A DNA stretch of 64,000 bases. Origin: Methanobacteriota archaeon (lineage in GTDB: Archaea; Thermoplasmatota; Poseidoniia; Poseidoniales; Poseidoniaceae). The stretch covers positions 53,818-117,817 of the forward strand of contig PBDU01000017.1 in NCBI GenBank assembly GCA_002718195.1, in the 5' to 3' direction. Below are positions 4,776 to 52,062 of the stretch, in pieces; positions within the stretch are counted from its first letter, which is position 1; every line of letters starts with the position of its first letter. Under the pieces are notes generated by a model that was not told the origin of the DNA, ran no database searches, and saw only the letters and a list, made by a program, of their open reading frames with translations. The position numbers and the translations under genes are program-made.

Positions 4776-6326
4776 TCAATTAAATTCCCAATCTTCTGAA
4801 ACCCTGGCCCTGACTCTTCTATTTCTAAAACGTCTATTGGATATTTCTTGAGCTAAATCATTTGCAATTTCAACTGGGACCTCGATTACAGCCATTCTAG
4901 CAAGCAAATTGACCTTGCCTATCTGCTCTCCATCCACGACTCTGTTCGAAGTTGCGAGTTTCAAGACATCCCTCACGTTAGCTCCCTCACTCTTACCAAT
5001 GTTGATGATTATTGCACAAGTTCCTTGATTCTCTTCTTTTTGGGAACTTGAATATGCATTGGATATTGCCCTAAGTGCAATTTCATGGAGATCTAAACCA
5101 TTCGATAGAAGTGCATCTAATATGTCCTCTGATAGCGGGTTTGGTTTTGCTTCCATTAATTCATCTACAGAGTCATACAGCATTGCAGAATCTACATCTT
5201 CTTTTGTTGGCGCCTGGATATCATAAATTTCATTTCCGGATTTTCTAAGTTGTTTTAGACGATTCTTAGCCCTGGAGCCTGCAAAAATAATGCTTGTACC
5301 GTTCCTTCCCGCTCTTCCAGTTCTTCCAGTTCTATGGACATAAACTTCCTTTGTCATAGGCAGGTCGTCGTGTATAATCAAATCAACATGATCAACGTCT
5401 AGCCCGCGTGAAGCAACATCTGTTGCAATCAATAACTCTAGTTTACCTTCTCTAAATTGATTCATGCACCTTGACCTTTCATTCTGTGTGAATCCGCCGT
5501 GCAATACGCCTGCTCTAACTCCTTTGACGGCTTTCTGCAACTCCTCGACTCTTGCTCTTGTCTTACAGAAAACAATGGTTGCTCTTGGCTTCATTACTTT
5601 CAGCAAGTCTTCAATGACCTTTGGTCTCCTACCTTTATTGATTTGAATTACAAATTGTTCAATTGATGAAGGCGGAGATTGTTTGCCATCCATTCCTATT
5701 CTTACAGGATCTTGCATGGATTTTTCAGCAAATTTTCTTACGTGCTTGGGAAATGTAGCGGAGAAAAGAAGCACCTGTAATTCTTGATTCATATGGCTTC
5801 GAATGAAATTCAAATCCTCTGCAAATCCCATTGACATCATTTCATCCGCTTCATCAAGAATGAGCATTCCAAATTTGTCTAAGGATATCGTTTTCCTTTC
5901 TAGATGGTCTCTCATCCTTCCAGGAGTTGCGATAACTATCAGTTTTCCCTTCTTAGAAAGGTCTTTTTTCTGTGTTGAATATGATGCTCCACCAATGATT
6001 ACAGCAATACCGCTTTTATTGAAAGCATCTATCATCTGAAGTTCGGTACCAACCTGTTGAGCAAGCTCCCTTGTTGGGCACAAAACTAGAGCATTATCTG
6101 GAGAGAGTAAAGCAGGAATTCCAAATGCAAGTGTCTTTCCGGATCCAGTAGGAGAAGTAGCGAGTATATCTGCGCCGTTTTGAGCAATCGGTATTGCTTC
6201 TGCTTGGATAGGTGTCATTTCCTTAAATCCAGCTTTTGTGATACCTGTTTGAATCGATTTATTCAATTCTAGGTTTTCAAACGAATTGTTGCTCATGCTG
6301 AACCACCACCGAGTGGTGCCCGGCAA
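4776..6326 (-). CDS. DEAD-box ATP-dependent RNA helicase
   Basis: Q-motif (TPIQAEAIP), motif I ATSPTGSGKTLAF, motif II ILDEADEMM, motif III FSATF, motif VI HRTGRTGRAG; likely true start at the MSNNSFENLEL Met (about 6296). Confidence 0.92.
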   Translation of the reverse strand: MPGTTRWWFSMSNNSFENLELNKSIQTGITKAGFKEMTPIQAEAIPIAQNGADILATSPTGSGKTLAFGIPALLSPDNALVLCPTRELAQQVGTELQMIDAFNKSGIAVIIGGASYSTQKKDLSKKGKLIVIATPGRMRDHLERKTISLDKFGMLILDEADEMMSMGFAEDLNFIRSHMNQELQVLLFSATFPKHVRKFAEKSMQDPVRIGMDGKQSPPSSIEQFVIQINKGRRPKVIEDLLKVMKPRATIVFCKTRARVEELQKAVKGVRAGVLHGGFTQNERSRCMNQFREGKLELLIATDVASRGLDVDHVDLIIHDDLPMTKEVYVHRTGRTGRAGRNGTSIIFAGSRAKNRLKQLRKSGNEIYDIQAPTKEDVDSAMLYDSVDELMEAKPNPLSEDILDALLSNGLDLHEIALRAISNAYSSSQKEENQGTCAIIINIGKSEGANVRDVLKLATSNRVVDGEQIGKVNLLARMAVIEVPVEIANDLAQEISNRRFRNRRVRARVSEDWEFN

Positions 6327-42704: not shown

Positions 42705-44024
42705 ATGTATGATTTAATCCGGCCTGCAAAAATCGAGCAAATCGATTCAGAAGAGCCCGTGGTCGATAAAACATCAACTAATAATTTGGCATTTTATCAT
42801 GGTAGCACTGCAAAACCATTGTCAACGCCCTGGCAGGTATCTCTTGAAAGGGCTAAGAAACTCATTACCTATGAGTTGCCTGAAGGCTACATTGTTGATT
42901 GTGCCTGTGGCTCTGGGGTTCAATTGGCAGCCTATGCCTCGCTTGCAAGAAAACCGGCAGTTGGTATCGAGTTGGATGCATCCAGGGCATTTGCAAGTGC
43001 GAAAAATTTGGAAGTTGTAGCAAATCTTAGGAAAAATTTAGACCACAATTGGTTCAATGAATCAATTTTTCTGGTTGGAGATGGCAGAAAAGGAAGGGAA
43101 GTATTACAAACAATTCATCAACAAAATGAACAAGAATCCGAGCCAAAAGTTGGACTTTTGATATTAGACCCAGCACGTCCAAGAAACAGTCGAACACATG
43201 GTCTTGAGGAGATGTCACCACAACTCCCTGAGGTGTTCTCTGGCTGGAAGGATTTCCTTAGTCATGGAAAAAACGGTCCAGCAATAATTCTCGATTTATC
43301 CCCTAGGCTCGTCCATGAACAACGTCTAGAGGTCGAGTCAATTGTTGATGAGTACTGGCCTGGAATAGGGAAAACTTGGGAATGGGTTAGTCGCGGTGGA
43401 GGAAGAGTAGATCGTTTGACCTTGTGGTTAGGGGCGGTGGCAGATCAAAAATTCAAACGCAGATTTGTCAGACTCCCATCCAATCCGAAAAATAAGCCAA
43501 CGGTAATTCAAGACGAAAAACCGCTATCTGCTGGAGAAAATACCCCCGCAGTCGCAAGAAGACTACCCCGGAAAGGAGATTATCTCAGCATCATAGATTC
43601 AGCACTAGTGGAATCTGGATTAGCCCAAGAGTGGCTGGAATCTTGTTTGGATGAGAATGCCCTCTCCAAAATAACCGACCCAGACCACGCAAAGCCTTAC
43701 TGGTCTGATGTTAGGACTAGGAGGCCGCTATTTCATCATCCCGTTGAACTCAAACTCCCCTACGGAGGAGAAAATTTCATTCAAGCAGGCGGGAAGATAG
43801 TTGCAATCTTCCACGAAGAATTTAGTTTAGAAAATTCAGACAAAATAGTTGCCTTTGCGCGCAAACACGAAATCGGGAATTTGAAAATTCGCCTCCCAAT
43901 CGACCCATCAATACAACCAAAGCTTCAGGGTGCAATTGATAGACAATTATCTTCAACTGGTGGAAAAAGGAAGGGATTTATGGTTAAATCGGGCTCAGAT
44001 AGCATGTCTCTTTTGGTGGTTTAA
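42705..44024 (+). CDS. class I SAM-dependent methyltransferase, probable RNA methyltransferase
   Basis: Motif I YIVDCACGSGVQLAAYAS, post-I acidic VGIELD, LLILDPARP motif IV-like. Confidence 0.55.
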   Translation: MYDLIRPAKIEQIDSEEPVVDKTSTNNLAFYHGSTAKPLSTPWQVSLERAKKLITYELPEGYIVDCACGSGVQLAAYASLARKPAVGIELDASRAFASAKNLEVVANLRKNLDHNWFNESIFLVGDGRKGREVLQTIHQQNEQESEPKVGLLILDPARPRNSRTHGLEEMSPQLPEVFSGWKDFLSHGKNGPAIILDLSPRLVHEQRLEVESIVDEYWPGIGKTWEWVSRGGGRVDRLTLWLGAVADQKFKRRFVRLPSNPKNKPTVIQDEKPLSAGENTPAVARRLPRKGDYLSIIDSALVESGLAQEWLESCLDENALSKITDPDHAKPYWSDVRTRRPLFHHPVELKLPYGGENFIQAGGKIVAIFHEEFSLENSDKIVAFARKHEIGNLKIRLPIDPSIQPKLQGAIDRQLSSTGGKRKGFMVKSGSDSMSLLVV

Positions 44025-46645: not shown

Positions 46646-47725
46646 GTGAAAATCTTTCACTATATTGATTTATTAAGCACAATTGGCTTGTTTAGAGGAA
46701 TCTCAGTGATACAGAGTAAATGCTCAGGCCATATTACTCTCATTTTTTCTATCCATGATAGTTCCTTACTTCCAAGAGCTCAAGGGTCGCGCGGCGTAGG
46801 TATTTGTTTAGAGGATGGGGTTAGAGTTGAACTTGTACATGCAGGAAAAGTCTCTCCGGATTCAGATGCAAGGACCAGTCATGGGCAATCAGTTGACATT
46901 CCTGCCGTCTATTCAAAGAAAGGTGATTTAATCGTCAATATTTATTCGATGAATGGCGAGAAATTTAGCGGTAGCGATTCAATGTACCATGACTTAGTGT
47001 CCGAGTTAAGAGAGATGTATCTTCTTTCAGAGTACGATTCCTTTGAATTAAACATATTTCTTGAATTACCGGTCTCACAAGGTTTCGGGATGTCTGCATC
47101 CGGTTTACTTTCGGCATCTCTAGCGTTTTTTGAATTTAGCAAAAAAGGGCGGCTAGATCAGTATGTAAGACTTGCACATAGGCTGGAACGGAAATACCAC
47201 GGAGGACTTGGAGACGTATTGGGAATATATCTCGGCGGAGTGGAGATGCGTACTATCGCAGGCAGCCCAGGTGCTGGAGGATTTGGTGTAAGTTTTGGTT
47301 CCAAAACTGATGTACTATTGGTTTGGGAAGACGAAGGAAAAAGGCATACATCGACGTATATAGACGACCCAAAATGGAAACTTTCCATTTCCGAAGCAGG
47401 AGATAAGTGCGTCGATGAGTTAAGTTCAGGAGCGTGGAATGAGGATAAATGGGAAAGCATTCTTGAAAATTCTATGAAATTTTCAAATGATTCAGGGATG
47501 CTTGAAGAAGATGTTAGAGCAAGTTTCCTTGCAAAGGTAAACTCTTCGATCGAAGCAATGGGTTTGTCAAACAAAGTTCAAGCATGTTTGTGCATGCTTG
47601 GTATATCAGCGGTGATTTTGCCAAAATCCTTAGATCAAGAGATTGCAACTGATCAATTACAAAATCTAGGAAAGGAGGTCCAAAGATTGGGTCTCGAGTA
47701 CAAAGTGTCTAGGATTGAGGGTTAG
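46646..47725 (+). CDS. GHMP-family kinase (pantoate kinase-like candidate)
   Basis: GHMP motif LPVSQGFGMSASGLLSASLA; N-terminal GHITLIF resembles archaeal pantoate kinase HITGFF; assignment within family uncertain. Confidence 0.55.
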   Translation: MKIFHYIDLLSTIGLFRGISVIQSKCSGHITLIFSIHDSSLLPRAQGSRGVGICLEDGVRVELVHAGKVSPDSDARTSHGQSVDIPAVYSKKGDLIVNIYSMNGEKFSGSDSMYHDLVSELREMYLLSEYDSFELNIFLELPVSQGFGMSASGLLSASLAFFEFSKKGRLDQYVRLAHRLERKYHGGLGDVLGIYLGGVEMRTIAGSPGAGGFGVSFGSKTDVLLVWEDEGKRHTSTYIDDPKWKLSISEAGDKCVDELSSGAWNEDKWESILENSMKFSNDSGMLEEDVRASFLAKVNSSIEAMGLSNKVQACLCMLGISAVILPKSLDQEIATDQLQNLGKEVQRLGLEYKVSRIEG

Positions 47726-48779
47726 CCTCTAATCTAGTTAAGTCAAGTTGTTCCGCATCCAATAAGATGCAACCGGGAATGTACATGTTTTCTGAGAAAC
47801 CATGTCTGTAGACTACGGCTCCAGAACCCCATTCATCTATGTAACGTGTCATTTGTTTAACCATTTTTTTCCTTTGGAATTCCACATCTGCGCCATAATA
47901 ATGTTTTGCGTCTATCCAAGCGATTGGTTCTCCATTAATTTCAACATGGTCTAAAAACAGTAGATCTGGAGTCCTAATTGGTCTTCCATGTTCTTGATTT
48001 TGTTCAGCAACCATTTCCGGTTGTCTGCGTAACCTAACTCCCTTCTGTTCGAACCAATCTGCTAACACTTCTTCGAACAAATCAGCCTTTTCGTGAGTTT
48101 CAGATTGATCCACATTACTCACTCTGTCAGCAGCCTCGGCTTTCTCAAATTCCTCACGCTCTCTTTTTTTGAATTTTGAGGGTTCTTTGAAGTGGGTTTT
48201 TATTCTTGCTTTAGACCATCCCTTCTCTGATAAAATTGTTCTAAAAATATTCATTGGGGGAAAATCAAATTTCCTCGATAAATCTACTACGCTGACGCCC
48301 TCTTCGTATAATCTTCGAAGCTGCTTCCCTTTTGACCTCATTCTATGATGGGAGTAAACTGTTTTTTGTTGAAGAAGAGCGCTTCGTAATGAAAGTGATT
48401 GGTCAAGGTTAATTTTCAAGTCTTGAATTTGGTCTCCGATTTCGTCAACTCTTTGCTCACTTAACCAACCAAATTCTCCTCTCTGAATTACTATTTTCGA
48501 TGCAGCCTCCTCATCACGAAGTGGAACAGGATTGGTTACCCACTCAAAAGAAAATGACTTCGCTTCTTCCAAATCTTCCGGAAACCCCATTTTTCTCGGT
48601 TCCACCTCGAATCTTTCCTCAGCCCGAGTTTTTGCCTCCTCTATGAAAGCCTCATTTCGGGTGTATATTGCCTCTGGGCTCGGTCCGCCGTATTTCTTAG
48701 GGCGTCGATTTTTATTGTTAGAGCGATTTCTCTGTTGCCGGGAATTATTTCTCCCAGTCGCACGATTCTTTTCACCCAT
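47709..48779 (-). CDS. TPD-motif / PD-(D/E)XK nuclease-fold protein (CDIN1/C15orf41-like) with polybasic N-terminal tail
   Basis: RTPDLLFLDHVEINGEPIAWIDAKHYYG (TPD ... IDAK = D...(D/E)xK core); N-terminus NRATGRNNSRQQRNRSNNKNRRPKKYGG. Confidence 0.55.
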   Translation of the reverse strand: MGEKNRATGRNNSRQQRNRSNNKNRRPKKYGGPSPEAIYTRNEAFIEEAKTRAEERFEVEPRKMGFPEDLEEAKSFSFEWVTNPVPLRDEEAASKIVIQRGEFGWLSEQRVDEIGDQIQDLKINLDQSLSLRSALLQQKTVYSHHRMRSKGKQLRRLYEEGVSVVDLSRKFDFPPMNIFRTILSEKGWSKARIKTHFKEPSKFKKREREEFEKAEAADRVSNVDQSETHEKADLFEEVLADWFEQKGVRLRRQPEMVAEQNQEHGRPIRTPDLLFLDHVEINGEPIAWIDAKHYYGADVEFQRKKMVKQMTRYIDEWGSGAVVYRHGFSENMYIPGCILLDAEQLDLTRLEANPQS

Positions 48780-48829: not shown

Positions 48830-49366
48830 TTAATTCAATATTGCAATGACGTCTTTCATCCATGTCTTGGCCATGCTCTCAACACTCGTTCTAACCCATC
48901 TAGAAGCCAATGAGTAAATCTTATTCAAACTGTAATCAATATAAATTTCAATACCAGATTGGTCTTTGTCAGAAAGGATGGTAATTGTCATCTGCAGCGA
49001 CTTAATTGCGCCTCCGACATTTTTACCAAGTCTGGTTTGCCCATCCAACGAGATTTCCAATTCGTAAAATAATGGCTTTGAATCTGAACCCCTTGTGCTT
49101 TTGACAGTCCACTTTTCTTGGACTAAGGCCCCCTTTACTATTCTCTGAAGTTCAAATTCATCTCCCTGAACCAACGTATTCTGGGTTGAAGAAATGATAT
49201 GAGTAGTGGATTTCATCCAAGATGTCCAAGTCGTAATATCTGGCAGAATACCTACAATCCTGGCTGCTTCATCTTGCAAGAGTGTCTCGCGTACAAGAAC
49301 GCGCTTACCCTGCATGTACTTTCCTCGAAGGTGCTTCTCATCATCTTGTCGAATCATCTTAGCCAT
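48830..49366 (-). CDS. hypothetical protein (178 aa)
   Basis: Clean ORF, soluble; no motif. Confidence 0.4.
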   Translation of the reverse strand: MAKMIRQDDEKHLRGKYMQGKRVLVRETLLQDEAARIVGILPDITTWTSWMKSTTHIISSTQNTLVQGDEFELQRIVKGALVQEKWTVKSTRGSDSKPLFYELEISLDGQTRLGKNVGGAIKSLQMTITILSDKDQSGIEIYIDYSLNKIYSLASRWVRTSVESMAKTWMKDVIAILN

Positions 49367-49398: not shown

Positions 49399-52062
49399 AT
49401 GCATAGAAGGCAAATCGCTATTTTGAGCGTTTCAGCCTTGTTGCTATTTTCGTTATCTAATTTGCTAGCAGTCCATCAAATTACGGACCAAGACTATCTC
49501 GATTTTCCTCAAAAAATAGTATCAAACTCCGAGACCAACGCGGAATTACTTGGCTGGGCAAATTCTGCAGCTGGTTTTGGCCAGGATAACGTATACGATG
49601 CCCACGTGGACATAGAGGGTTTCACCTACCTAGTTGGATCTTATACAGATTGGATGGGCTTCAATGAACAAGTCGATGGCATTACTTCTGAAGGTGCGCT
49701 AGGGGATGTGGACATGTTCCTTGGGAAAATTGACAAGAATGGAGTTTGGCTAAATGCCACCACTGAAGGGAGTTCATCAGGTAAAGATACTATTCAAGCA
49801 ATCGACAGCTTCGAAAATGGAGACTTATTGTTGGCTGGAACATTTTGTGAAGGAACTGCCGGAATCTCTTGTAACCTAACATTAGGGGATATGCCGTCTC
49901 TTGAAAAAATATCCAACAACGATGAAGGTAACATATTCGTTGGCAGATACACAACCACAGGGGCCTGGCAGTGGGTTCAAAATATTGGAAACCAATATCC
50001 AGTTGAGATTATCGGAGCGGCTGTGAATTCAGTCCAAAATTCCGTTATTGCATTTACTCACTCGGAAGATATACCAATTAATGAGGCAGTCATCAATGGA
50101 ACACCCAATTATTCCCTTAGCATCTTAGAACTAGATTTCGCGGGTAATTATTCACAACACAGCACATTGGATGCATCACAGGGTTTTGAATCTCAAGGGG
50201 ATCTATGTCCGGGGAACGATGGTGAAACCTTTACTTTGTTTGGTTTTTCAGGAGTCCTCACCTCTCAAGAACTTTCAATTTCTAGTAATGGATGGAGCGA
50301 TATCGGTCTTACAAAATTCAGTTCAGGCTCAATTGAATGGATAAGCACAGGTGGCAGTGAAGAATCGGATATGCCGGCTTCCTGCTCCTATTCACCACTA
50401 GGAAAAATTGCGATGAGTTCGACAATAAGCGGTGATTCATTATTTGGATCTTTGGAGATTACCAATATCTCAAGTCGAGCAATGTCTGTAGTTGTAGCCG
50501 ATATGAGTGGTGAGTGGAAAGAATCGGCTTCACTGGATTCAGTTAACTATGAATCAATATCGGATATTGAATTTGATGTTCAGGGTGGATTAACAGTCCT
50601 CGGCTCAATTTCGTCAACTCTGACCATCGGTGATGATGTTCTAGATGATTTGGATTCGAGTAATGACATATACAGTAATGACGTTTTCTTGGGCTATCTC
50701 TCGAATAGCATGGAGTGGGAATGGGCACTCAATGCTGGTGGAGAAGGAAATGATGTAGGACGCTCCTTATCCAAAGGCCCAGATGGCTCTTGGGTCATCA
50801 CCTACATCTTCACCGATGAGAATACTATGGCAGGTCATGATGTAATTCACCAAGGATCAGAAGATGTTGGAATTTGGAGGTATGATACAGACATCGATGG
50901 TGATGGAATTCTAGATGGGGCTGATGTTTGCCCCAGAATACCGAATCCAGACCAAGCCAACCTGGACATGGACGAGTATGGGGATTTATGTGACCTGGAC
51001 GATGATGGAGATAGGATTCCAGATGAATTAGACGATTGTCCACTTGGTGAAACAGGCTGGGTGAGCCTTCAAAGCACTGACCATGATTCAGATGGTTGTA
51101 GAGATGCAGGTGAAGATCTTGATGATGATGAAGACAGAATTTTTGACCATAATGATGCTTGTCCATTGGGCCCTGTTGGCTGGATATCTACTCCCGAGGT
51201 AGATAGGGAAGGAGATGGTTGTGCAGATTTTGATACCGATGAGGATGGTTTTGTAGACCAAGCAGACAATTGCCCAAACCTACCCAATCCAACACAAACA
51301 GACCTAGATAATGATGGTAAAGGAGATCCATGTGATGAAGACGCAGATGGAGACACAATCAATTTGCCCCAAGACAACTGTCCTATGGATTTTGAACCCT
51401 GGATTAGTACAGAATTAATCGACCATGACAGAGATGGCTGCAGGGATTCAACAAATGATTTGGACGATGATGGCGATAATATCCTTGATGGCTTTGATGC
51501 CTGTCCAGTTGGTCAGACAGGATGGCTCTCAAACGATTCAACCGATTTAGATTCAGATGGATGCAATAATGAAGAAGATCTAGATGATGATAATGATGGT
51601 TTCAATGATGATGTGGATAACTGTCCTTTGGGGATTACCGGGGTTGCTCCACTCGGACAAGATCGTGACAATGATGGTTGCATAGATTCTGTAGAGGATT
51701 TAGATGATGATGGGGATGGTGTAGAGAATGATGCCGATCAATGTCCAAGAACGCCACTGATAGGTTCTGAGATCACGGCATATGGGTGTGCTTGGATTCA
51801 ACTGGATGATGATGGGGATGGCGTGTCTAACCTCGATGACCTTTGCCCTTCGTCCTCACAAGGAGCCCTGGTGACTCTAAATGGCTGTGAGATAATCCAA
51901 GAAACTAATACAGAGGTCAGTCCATCTTCATCTAATTCAGCCCTATATGTTGTTATCGCACTATTGTCGGTGGTAACAGGGGCAATCATTTTGAAGATAA
52001 AATCAGACAATTCAACAGGTGTGGAAAAAACAGTTCAATCCATTCCTAAAGAAGAGGAATGA
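49399..52062 (+). CDS. secreted protein with thrombospondin type-3-like Ca-binding repeats and C-terminal TM anchor
   Basis: Signal-like MHRRQIAILSVSALLLFSLSNLLAV; over 12 D-x-D-x-D-G-x-x-D-x-x-D/C units (DTDIDGDGILDGADVCP, DLDDDGDRIPDELDDCP ...); C-term LYVVIALLSVVTGAIILKIKS. Confidence 0.8.
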   Translation: MHRRQIAILSVSALLLFSLSNLLAVHQITDQDYLDFPQKIVSNSETNAELLGWANSAAGFGQDNVYDAHVDIEGFTYLVGSYTDWMGFNEQVDGITSEGALGDVDMFLGKIDKNGVWLNATTEGSSSGKDTIQAIDSFENGDLLLAGTFCEGTAGISCNLTLGDMPSLEKISNNDEGNIFVGRYTTTGAWQWVQNIGNQYPVEIIGAAVNSVQNSVIAFTHSEDIPINEAVINGTPNYSLSILELDFAGNYSQHSTLDASQGFESQGDLCPGNDGETFTLFGFSGVLTSQELSISSNGWSDIGLTKFSSGSIEWISTGGSEESDMPASCSYSPLGKIAMSSTISGDSLFGSLEITNISSRAMSVVVADMSGEWKESASLDSVNYESISDIEFDVQGGLTVLGSISSTLTIGDDVLDDLDSSNDIYSNDVFLGYLSNSMEWEWALNAGGEGNDVGRSLSKGPDGSWVITYIFTDENTMAGHDVIHQGSEDVGIWRYDTDIDGDGILDGADVCPRIPNPDQANLDMDEYGDLCDLDDDGDRIPDELDDCPLGETGWVSLQSTDHDSDGCRDAGEDLDDDEDRIFDHNDACPLGPVGWISTPEVDREGDGCADFDTDEDGFVDQADNCPNLPNPTQTDLDNDGKGDPCDEDADGDTINLPQDNCPMDFEPWISTELIDHDRDGCRDSTNDLDDDGDNILDGFDACPVGQTGWLSNDSTDLDSDGCNNEEDLDDDNDGFNDDVDNCPLGITGVAPLGQDRDNDGCIDSVEDLDDDGDGVENDADQCPRTPLIGSEITAYGCAWIQLDDDGDGVSNLDDLCPSSSQGALVTLNGCEIIQETNTEVSPSSSNSALYVVIALLSVVTGAIILKIKSDNSTGVEKTVQSIPKEEE

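Follow-up and report, generated by a model that had tools for sequence, protein, structure and literature searches.

The window, that is, the whole 64,000-nucleotide stretch of DNA analysed here, carries on its minus strand a CDIN1-like coding sequence of 356 aa (47709..48779), which in the ORF list has an ATG start and a stop codon at 47709-47711. The gene, its parts and its immediate neighbours are as follows.

46646..47725, plus strand: GHMP-family, pantoate-kinase-like gene (PF00288), the convergent downstream neighbour
47709..48779, minus strand: CDIN1-like gene, Poseidoniales CDIN1 orthologue of the TPD family, PF14811 (ORF list, Pfam, dN/dS)
48681..48779, minus strand: disordered polybasic tail, aa 1-33, ending RRPKKYGG (composition, pLDDT, in-frame conservation)
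48528..48680, minus strand: extension without a human CDIN1 counterpart, aa 34-84 (AF2, pLDDT mostly 86-97)
48120..48527, minus strand: helical HTH/homeodomain-like N-domain, aa 85-220
47745..48119, minus strand: PD-(D/E)XK nuclease domain, aa 221-345
48072..48074, minus strand: motif I, catalytic Glu E236 (human E166; conservation, alignment)
47964..47972, minus strand: motif II, T270-P271-D272 (D272 being human D196; conservation, alignment)
47904..47912, minus strand: motif III, D290-A291-K292 (human E214-S-K216; conservation, alignment)
47841..47855, minus strand: motif IV, QxxxY, Q309-M-T-R-Y313 (human Q232...Y236), in the helix after motif III
48830..49366, minus strand: 178-aa ORF upstream on the same strand, 50 bp from the CDIN1-like gene

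Using Pfam, we found the TPD domain (PF14811) at residues 206-333 of the 356-aa protein, with 72.2 bits against a cut-off of 27 (E=4.9e-20), and the same domain was present in all the homologues listed (n=120). Regarding human CDIN1, its alignment to the family profile A2 with hhalign gave 98.65% (E=4.7e-16, 207 columns) and covered both domains, pairing archaeal residues 122-334 with human residues 34-257. The human sequence used in our comparisons has 276 aa and may miss around 5 C-terminal residues; it agrees with the published numbering at 17 positions. The first-pass annotation had assigned the protein to the TPD/CDIN1 (C15orf41) family and had proposed a profile match to PF14811 as a check. 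Both are borne out by these matches, which identify the protein, at the level of sequence, as the Poseidoniales orthologue of eukaryotic CDIN1/C15orf41. Two of the strings that it quoted lie at residues 269-278 (RTPDLLFLDH) and 286-296 (IAWIDAKHYYG), and the TPD / (D/E)xK motif is far above chance expectation. The family and its occurrence in Poseidoniales were previously on record, an identical (100%) protein is public as 'hypothetical protein CMB73_06445 [Euryarchaeota archaeon]', and the product is an ordinary member of a catalogued Pfam family. Its archaeal members had been described as poorly characterised, and the single mention of them that we found in the literature is indeed one paragraph in PMC7092493. 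A search of NCBIfam with the protein gave no informative match. The PDB sequences, searched with the protein by itself as well as with profile A1, yielded no CDIN1, because no experimental CDIN1 structure exists (PMC13463051), and only a borderline match of 41 residues to 3kdq (E=0.049).

To examine the active site we used 115 representatives with a pairwise identity of at most 50%, together with an AF2 model built from a 98-sequence alignment (pLDDT 92.8, pTM 0.88; a shallow alignment of Poseidoniaceae only gave an unusable model with pLDDT 58). The model shows an HTH-like N-domain and a PD-(D/E)XK domain, the latter in the order alpha(226-245)-beta(250-252)-alpha-beta(273-281)-beta(284-292)-alpha(300-317)-beta(320-324)-beta(337-341). 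This contains the canonical alpha-beta-beta-beta-alpha-beta core of the superfamily, with E on helix 1 (226-245), D starting strand 2 (273-281) and (D/E)xK on strand 3 (284-292). Among the representatives, E236, P271, D272 and K292 are each 100% conserved, T270 97% and D290 90%, while the QxxxY residues Q309 and Y313 reach 98% and 100%. The catalytic residues map one-to-one to those of human CDIN1 (E236 to E166, D272 to D196, D290 to E214 and K292 to K216), and the spacing of 18 residues from D272 to D290 is that of human D196 to E214. Hence both the alignment and the model bear out the claimed PD-(D/E)XK fold and the conservation of its catalytic residues, and the conservation of the D/E/K triad, put forward earlier as a check, holds as well. 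The N-domain is marked by LSLRSALLQQK, by DFPP and by D218 (human D147), which is 100% conserved. It also holds R180 (90% conserved) and K198, the counterparts of the human nucleic-acid-contact residues R101 and R126, basic in both proteins. At the CDA-I founder positions, human Y94 and L178, the archaeal protein has F173 (within DFPP) and V248, keeping the hydrophobic character.

Archaeal and human proteins thus share the same layout of two domains (HTH-like and helical at the N-terminus, PD-(D/E)XK at the C-terminus), the corresponding catalytic E/D/(D/E)xK residues, and the family-wide D218, QxxxY and GxG motifs. They differ in that their identity is only 21%, that motif III reads DxK in the archaeal protein and ExK in the human one, and that an archaeal extension of around 75-85 aa (polybasic tail, helix, MGFP linker and beta-strand) remains unaligned. 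Besides, human CDIN1 has Codanin-1 as a partner, whereas none has been reported for archaea (PMC7092493).

Within the tail, residues 5-32 read NRATGRNNSRQQRNRSNNKNRRPKKYGG, the string that the first-pass annotation had quoted. Residues 1-32 comprise 11 K/R, 1 D/E and 7 N, a K/R density that is not unique in the window, as 4 of its 44 long ORFs are comparable. The tail has a pLDDT of around 52-72 in the AF2 model, and its basic composition and a (K/R)(K/R)(Y/H)GG motif are kept in-frame across Poseidoniales loci. Since it is in-frame in essentially every Poseidoniales orthologue, including those at loci annotated from a downstream Met, we consider the tail a real, selected feature. The polybasic N-terminus noted by the first-pass annotation is therefore confirmed, and the conserved basic composition supports its suggestion that the tail probably binds nucleic acid. 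The extension that follows is made of helices 35-41 and 43-55, a M64-G65-x-P67 linker that is invariant in alignment A1, and a strand at 75-78 (FSFEW); this region (aa 34-84) was found in around 25% of divergent representatives.

The CDIN1-like gene is present in single copy, and in 85 loci it occupied a fixed syntenic slot with housekeeping genes on either side. The convergent pantoate-kinase-like gene, whose 3' end overlaps it by 17 bp, was its neighbour in 84 of these loci; the best NCBIfam matches of this gene are to pantoate kinase, well under the cut-off. Other neighbours are LeuRS and a TSP3-repeat surface protein, and these, like the pantoate kinase, carry no hint of RNA metabolism. 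Immediately upstream, the 178-aa ORF was found in 77 of the 85 loci, with identities of 22-36% (83% in the near-identical locus L006) and, in locus L001, a start/stop overlap with the CDIN1-like gene; it is missing in L009, L012, L073, L080 and L088, among others. This ORF had no Pfam match; a weak SRPBCC-type hit was obtained elsewhere (E=0.0086). We discarded it as an obligate Codanin-like partner because it is absent from around 10% of the loci and evolves very fast, and we regard it as a frequent, non-obligatory neighbour and a possible co-transcript. The adjacency to the r-protein/RNAP operon that had been pointed out is literally true in this window; nevertheless, the operon lies on the opposite strand with the pantoate-kinase-like gene in between, and a tblastn survey found the adjacency in only 28 of the 85 loci, as well as in the more divergent loci L088-L090, which lie outside that set. 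A functional link to the S13-S4-S11-RpoD operon was rejected on these grounds.

At least 217 species genomes carry the CDIN1-like gene, and the named ones among 80 listed are all Poseidoniales or unclassified euryarchaeal MAGs; the scan used alignment A3, with archaeal-subtype patterns, so that divergent homologues in other prokaryotes could escape it. Protein identity across genomes was 59-69% (96% for the near-identical L006), compared with around 40% for the pantoate-kinase-like gene and around 58% for RpoD in the same genomes. The dN/dS value against L006 was 0.021, and the GC content was 41.5%, versus 42.4% for the genome. Divergent orthologues with a higher GC also exist. According to these results, this is a core gene in a fixed genomic slot and under strong purifying selection.

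The closest non-archaeal relatives are protist and giant-virus homologues, the nearest being 40-45% identical, among them Kipferlia bialata GIQ89291.1, the Powai lake megavirus TPD protein and the Acanthamoeba polyphaga mimivirus 'CDAN1-interacting nuclease 1'. The giant-virus homologues were found through contig context and BFVD; IMG/VR scans (A3, P0163) and tblastn of phage genomes gave no match. Some of these relatives share the helix and a FxFxW strand after a K-rich tract, and viral models match the archaeal protein in fold (E=9e-27, TM 0.72/0.84). In contrast, many protist forms bear a long N-terminal CxxC...FSxxQWK (Stc1-like) zinc-finger or PPR-repeat arrays, and the giant-virus forms, of around 270-310 aa, are devoid of the basic tail. 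The archaeal clade is nested among eukaryote and giant-virus homologues, and this topology suggests that the CDIN1-type gene was anciently acquired by horizontal transfer.

Human CDIN1 offers the biochemical reference for the family. It was reported in 2026 to be a Mg/Mn-dependent RNA 3' nuclease: the purified protein cleaves RNA at its 3' ends, both in dsRNA and within RNA:DNA hybrids, and is inactive on every DNA tested, including replication-fork-like structures (PMC13463051). On its own it is weak, making a single 2-nt cut at >250 nM, and its processivity needs Codanin-1, whose basic CC domain feeds it the substrate (PMC13463051); an earlier study had detected none whatsoever (PMC7261414). 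In the model of the human protein, E166 coordinates Mg2+, Q232 is predicted to touch the RNA strand, and the D196A/E214A double mutant is inactive (PMC13463051). Reports of Codanin-1 itself are confined to animals and a handful of protists (PMC7092493).

The first-pass annotation saw the protein as kin to Hjc-type resolvases, and a DNA structure-specific endo- or exonuclease, Hjc/Mus81-like or RecB/Cas4-like and acting in recombination or repair, is a reading that we find rather unlikely while granting it several arguments. The fold resembles those of restriction enzymes, NucS, Vsr and Cas4, and HTH/homeodomain-like N-domains commonly bind dsDNA. RecB-like QxxxY nucleases are mostly DNA exonucleases. 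The archaeal protein has this motif (Q309-MTR-Y313), characteristic of the RecB family (PMC2475608), in common with the RecB nuclease domain, Cas4 and lambda-exonuclease-type enzymes, and the motif alone does not establish RecB membership. The human CDIN1-Codanin-1 complex, too, binds both DNA and RNA (PMC13463051). As for Hjc, this archaeal Holliday-junction resolvase shares the PD-(D/E)XK superfamily with our protein, and we detected no specific similarity beyond the generic fold, the only match being a non-significant one of 21 columns that pairs the catalytic Glu of the first helix (E236 with Hjc E9). Because human CDIN1 cuts RNA and is inert on DNA (PMC13463051), branched DNA, the substrate proposed for a nuclease assay, is the wrong one to begin with and the less likely target.

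That the protein, with its HTH domain and basic tail, is mainly a nucleic-acid-binding regulator or chromatin-type protein, its nuclease fold serving for binding or dimerisation and not for catalysis, we hold to be improbable: all four catalytic residues and QxxxY are (near-)invariant over hundreds of lineages, unlike a decayed site, and the human activity is lost in D196A/E214A (PMC13463051). We give still less credit, indeed very little, to a defence, restriction or mobile-element nuclease of recent horizontal acquisition. A restriction-endonuclease-like fold, the homologues in giant viruses and a phyletic pattern implying horizontal transfer at some time would speak for it; yet there was no PADLOC match, the PHROG match was non-significant (E=0.015), and neither phage genomes nor IMG/VR contained a match. 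Moreover, no methyltransferase, integrase or repeat lies close by, the GC content is near that of the genome, dN/dS is 0.02, and the single-copy gene sits in the same housekeeping neighbourhood in 85 loci, a synteny by which such a recent origin is largely refuted.

We therefore favour, at slightly better than even confidence, a CDIN1 orthologue acting as a two-domain divalent-metal nuclease, most likely in RNA 3'-end hydrolysis, with the tail aiding in cis. The N-domain (aa 85-220) and the PD-(D/E)XK domain (aa 221-345) would form a cleft in which E236, D272 and D290 bind Mg2+ and K292 is the catalytic lysine, while Q309 and Y313 would touch the phosphate or the terminus of the substrate. Taking the human enzyme as a guide, we expect the protein most probably to hydrolyse RNA starting at a free 3' terminus; RNA duplexes, or the RNA strand within RNA:DNA hybrids, would be its likely substrates, and the activity would serve housekeeping RNA processing or hybrid removal. 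An RNA substrate appears likely because human CDIN1 is an RNA 3' nuclease inactive on DNA, and we also counted in its favour that PPR repeats, a type of module that binds RNA, are fused to some of the eukaryote-type relatives. At only 21% identity to human CDIN1, the archaeal protein may have come to differ in substrate specificity. In animals, Codanin-1 gives CDIN1 a positively charged 'feeder' surface. The lineage-specific N-terminal extension, a presumably disordered polybasic tail ending RRPKKYGG and then a putative docking helix, could provide extra nucleic-acid contacts in cis in place of Codanin-1. Catalysis by the archaeal protein, its RNA substrate and the function of its tail are thus all inferred, the last being purely conjectural.

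Regarding its origin, we propose, as a possibility falling short of probable, that the ancestor of Poseidoniales acquired its CDIN1-type nuclease from a eukaryotic or giant-virus donor. The gene would then have been fixed as an essential, Codanin-independent nuclease for RNA 3' ends or RNA:DNA hybrids, with the polybasic tail replacing the feeding domain of Codanin-1. Its occurrence in eukaryotes, in giant viruses and in a single order of archaea makes the gene a clean candidate for inter-domain transfer and, if the proposal is true, this would be a rare eukaryote-to-archaeon transfer turned core informational gene.

CDIN1 is a human disease gene, mutated in hereditary anaemia. Its biochemical activity was first reported only in 2026 (PMC13463051). 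The archaeal orthologue is compact, has all the catalytic and family-invariant residues, and would not need the 1,200-residue Codanin-1 scaffold; it could be tractable for structure determination and for the RNA-versus-DNA question. Poseidoniales (Marine Group II archaea) are the most abundant archaea of the surface ocean, and in them it represents a strongly constrained core gene without an assigned function.

The sole Pfam match of the window protein is PF14811, ‘TPD’ (E=4.9e-20; 72 bits, with the gathering cut-off at 27); NCBIfam, PADLOC and PHROGs gave no significant match. It is encoded by the following ORF, taken from a six-frame list:

47709-48779, minus strand: CDIN1-like ORF, 356 codons, ATG start

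We searched 1.84 billion cluster representatives exhaustively with a profile and found 1356 relatives at E<=1e-3, mostly of about 270-310 aa and covering window-protein residues about 70-350, so homology reaches well past the Pfam domain. A profile built from 98 family sequences matched human CDIN1 (C15orf41) with 98.65% probability (E=4.7e-16, 207 columns), pairing window residues 122-334 with human residues 34-257. The human sequence used fits the residue numbering of PMC13463051 at all 17 positions quoted there. With the PF14811 match and a human match across both domains, the TPD/CDIN1 family proposed in the first-pass annotation proved right; the family is known, and the protein had already been catalogued in it. 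Its 100% identical public counterpart is a ‘hypothetical protein CMB73_06445 [Euryarchaeota archaeon]’ and its close relatives carry the name ‘TPD domain-containing protein [Candidatus Poseidoniaceae archaeon]’; the window therefore belongs to a Marine Group II (MGII, Poseidoniales) archaeon. The gene has a GC content of 41.5%, close to the 42.4% of the window, and a dN/dS of 0.021 against its 96% identical orthologue in L006, a related locus. We conclude that the ORF is a genuine gene and that purifying selection on it is strong. Public labels are noisy: in the JGI clusters of homologues P0382 and P0389 some orthologues are called ‘Mor family transcriptional regulator’ and one goes by ‘transposase-like protein’. 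One NCBI MAG in which the gene occurs (MAF93350.1) bears the label Candidatus Woesearchaeota, but is probably a Poseidoniales bin under the wrong name.

A structure model from a shallow alignment was poor (pLDDT 58), while the 98-sequence alignment gave a pLDDT of 92.8 and a pTM of 0.88, with this predicted layout:

Residues 1-33: disordered tail
Residues 35-55 (helices) and 75-78 (short strand): N-terminal extension
Residues 85-220: all-helical domain
Residues 221-345: alpha-beta-alpha-beta-beta-alpha-beta-beta domain

As modelled, the last domain has the canonical PD-(D/E)XK layout, with E236 on its first helix, D272 just before strand 273-281, and strand 284-292 ending in D290/K292. The motifs that had drawn attention to the protein are indeed present, RTPDLLFLDH at residues 269-278 and IAWIDAKHYYG at 286-296. 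The alignment pairs E236, D272, D290 and K292 with E166, D196, E214 and K216, which form the human active site; the D196A/E214A double mutation abolishes human activity (PMC13463051). Among 115 full-length representatives sharing at most 50% pairwise identity, D218, E236, P271, D272, W288, K292, Y313, G318 and G320 are 100% conserved, and Q309 (98%), T270 (97%) and D290 (90%) nearly invariant. D218, equivalent to human D147, is a family-invariant Asp besides the catalytic residues. The most conserved motif of the N-domain, MTLDQALSLRSALLQQKTVYSH (residues 118-158, about 48306-48428), gave a marginal match to an uncharacterised conserved protein, PDB 3kdq (E=0.049), which may be due to chance.

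The window protein would be a Mg2+-dependent nuclease, like human CDIN1, and would most likely attack the 3' ends of RNA, either in RNA duplexes or in RNA:DNA hybrids. This reading draws on the orthology over both domains, the intact active site, the conservation of basic N-domain residues R180 and K198, the PPR fusions found in relatives and the biochemistry of the human enzyme. Human CDIN1 is metal-dependent, acts on RNA only, needs a free 3' end and is inert on replication-fork-like and other DNA substrates (PMC13463051). The earlier emphasis on Hjc and on a branched-DNA test is outdated. One could argue that the window protein is instead a DNA nuclease, the main rival, given a DNA-type HTH domain and a RecB-like QxxxY motif: the helix that follows motif III contains Q309-x3-Y313, and QxxxY is characteristic of RecB-family PD-(D/E)XK nucleases (PMC2475608). 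Q309 aligns with human Q232, for which a contact with the RNA strand is predicted (PMC13463051).

Regarding the N-terminus, residues 1-32 contain 11 K/R and a single D/E, and the Arg/Asn/Lys-rich stretch noted previously spans residues 5-32. Such basic density is not unique within the window, being reached by four of its 44 long ORFs. A comparably basic N-terminus is found in every Poseidoniales orthologue examined, ending in (K/R)(K/R)(Y/H)GG(P/T/S); a conserved helix comes next, then an invariant MGxP linker. Public calls of many Poseidoniales orthologues omit this conserved tail. In divergent, higher-GC lineages they begin at a downstream internal Met (316/319 aa); the basic tail is encoded in-frame upstream of the called starts (5914-6000 in locus L088, 5908-6000 in L090), and the NCBI entries for these clusters have 347 aa. 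The tail is thus selected and translated, and it belongs to a lineage-specific N-terminal extension. Animal CDIN1 has its substrate ‘fed’ to it by Codanin-1, through a basic coiled-coil domain (PMC13463051), and no Codanin-1 has been reported in archaea (PMC7092493). By analogy, the polybasic tail would take over this substrate-feeding job in cis.

We then surveyed the gene neighbourhood in 85 related loci, with L088-L090 fetched afterwards and counted separately. The window neighbours are:

46646-47725, plus strand: GHMP-family gene, best matches archaeal pantoate kinases, far under NCBIfam cut-offs (68 bits vs 500)
48830-49366, minus strand: 178-aa ORF, same strand as the CDIN1-like gene and 50 bp upstream of it
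49399-52062, plus strand: 887-aa protein with many thrombospondin type-3 (calcium-binding) repeats and two hydrophobic segments, one signal-like at the N-terminus and one C-terminal anchor
42705-44024, plus strand: 439-aa ORF upstream of the S13 operon, faint SAM-methyltransferase-like matches only

In 84 loci the next gene downstream is the pantoate-kinase-like one, in convergent orientation; here its 3' end overlaps the CDIN1-like gene by 17 bp, and in L004 it adjoins a phosphopantothenate synthetase gene (PF02006). Of the 85 loci, 77 carry a fast-evolving ORF of about 178 aa directly upstream and in the same orientation, with a start/stop overlap in L001; about 8 lack it. The window copy is 22-36% identical to its counterparts, except the near-identical one of L006, and has no Pfam match; its one hint of a family is the SRPBCC-type Rv0910 toxin family, matched below threshold (E=0.0086). 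LeuRS is found close by in 69 loci and the thrombospondin-repeat protein in 57. The 439-aa ORF, with no significant family match, is kept in at least 23, and a 412-424-aa gene occupies its position in L088-L090. The adjacent S13-S4-S11-RpoD operon highlighted in the first-pass annotation is present, but it is encoded on the opposite strand with a gene in between, and it adjoins in 28 of the 85 loci (also in the divergent L088-L090); this adjacency is incidental, without evident functional meaning. Across the same genomes, identity is 59-69% for the CDIN1-like protein, up to about 69% for LeuRS, about 58% for RpoD, about 40% for the pantoate-kinase-like protein and about 28% for the upstream ORF. 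These are stable, housekeeping surroundings, in which no marker of defence or of mobile elements was seen.

We scanned one genome for each GTDB species with patterns that were specific to the archaeal subtype and do not formally exclude other prokaryotes. This identified a relative in 217 species genomes; the labels of the 80 listed are Poseidoniales, Poseidoniaceae or unclassified MAGs of euryarchaeotes/Methanobacteriota. The archaeal occurrence of the family was already published in 2020, with C15orf41 orthologues in Euryarchaeota and in no other archaeal phylum (PMC7092493); in the literature we found no paper linking CDIN1/TPD to MGII by name. The nearest non-archaeal relatives, one from the metamonad Kipferlia bialata, are 40-45% identical and show eukaryote-type architectures (Stc1-like zinc-finger arrays, PPR repeats). 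Among eukaryote-type relatives, P0157 and P0171 fuse the CDIN1 module to RNA-binding PPR repeats (matches below Pfam cut-offs), and P0135 and P0141 to CxxC...FSxxQWK zinc-finger arrays, which pass the Stc1 cut-off in P0135 but stay under it in P0141. Both fusion types appear undescribed in the CDIN1 literature consulted. Homologues of 270-294 aa also occur on two gene-dense metagenomic contigs of 183 kb and 53 kb (L086 8001-8813 and L087 8001-8885; GC 37-39%), whose genes (photolyase, FtsJ, XPG/FEN1-like, thymidine kinase, zf-MYND, Sel1) look like those of giant viruses. The structure model matches megavirus and mimivirus proteins annotated TPD/CDIN1 in BFVD (E=9e-27 to 1e-9). In a neighbour-joining tree, crude, without support values and with most leaves unlabelled, a tight Poseidoniales clade nests among eukaryote-type sequences, which suggests one ancient, still unproven transfer from a eukaryote or virus to an archaeon, followed by fixation. 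The main value of the window protein is as a tractable, Codanin-free model for the human disease nuclease.
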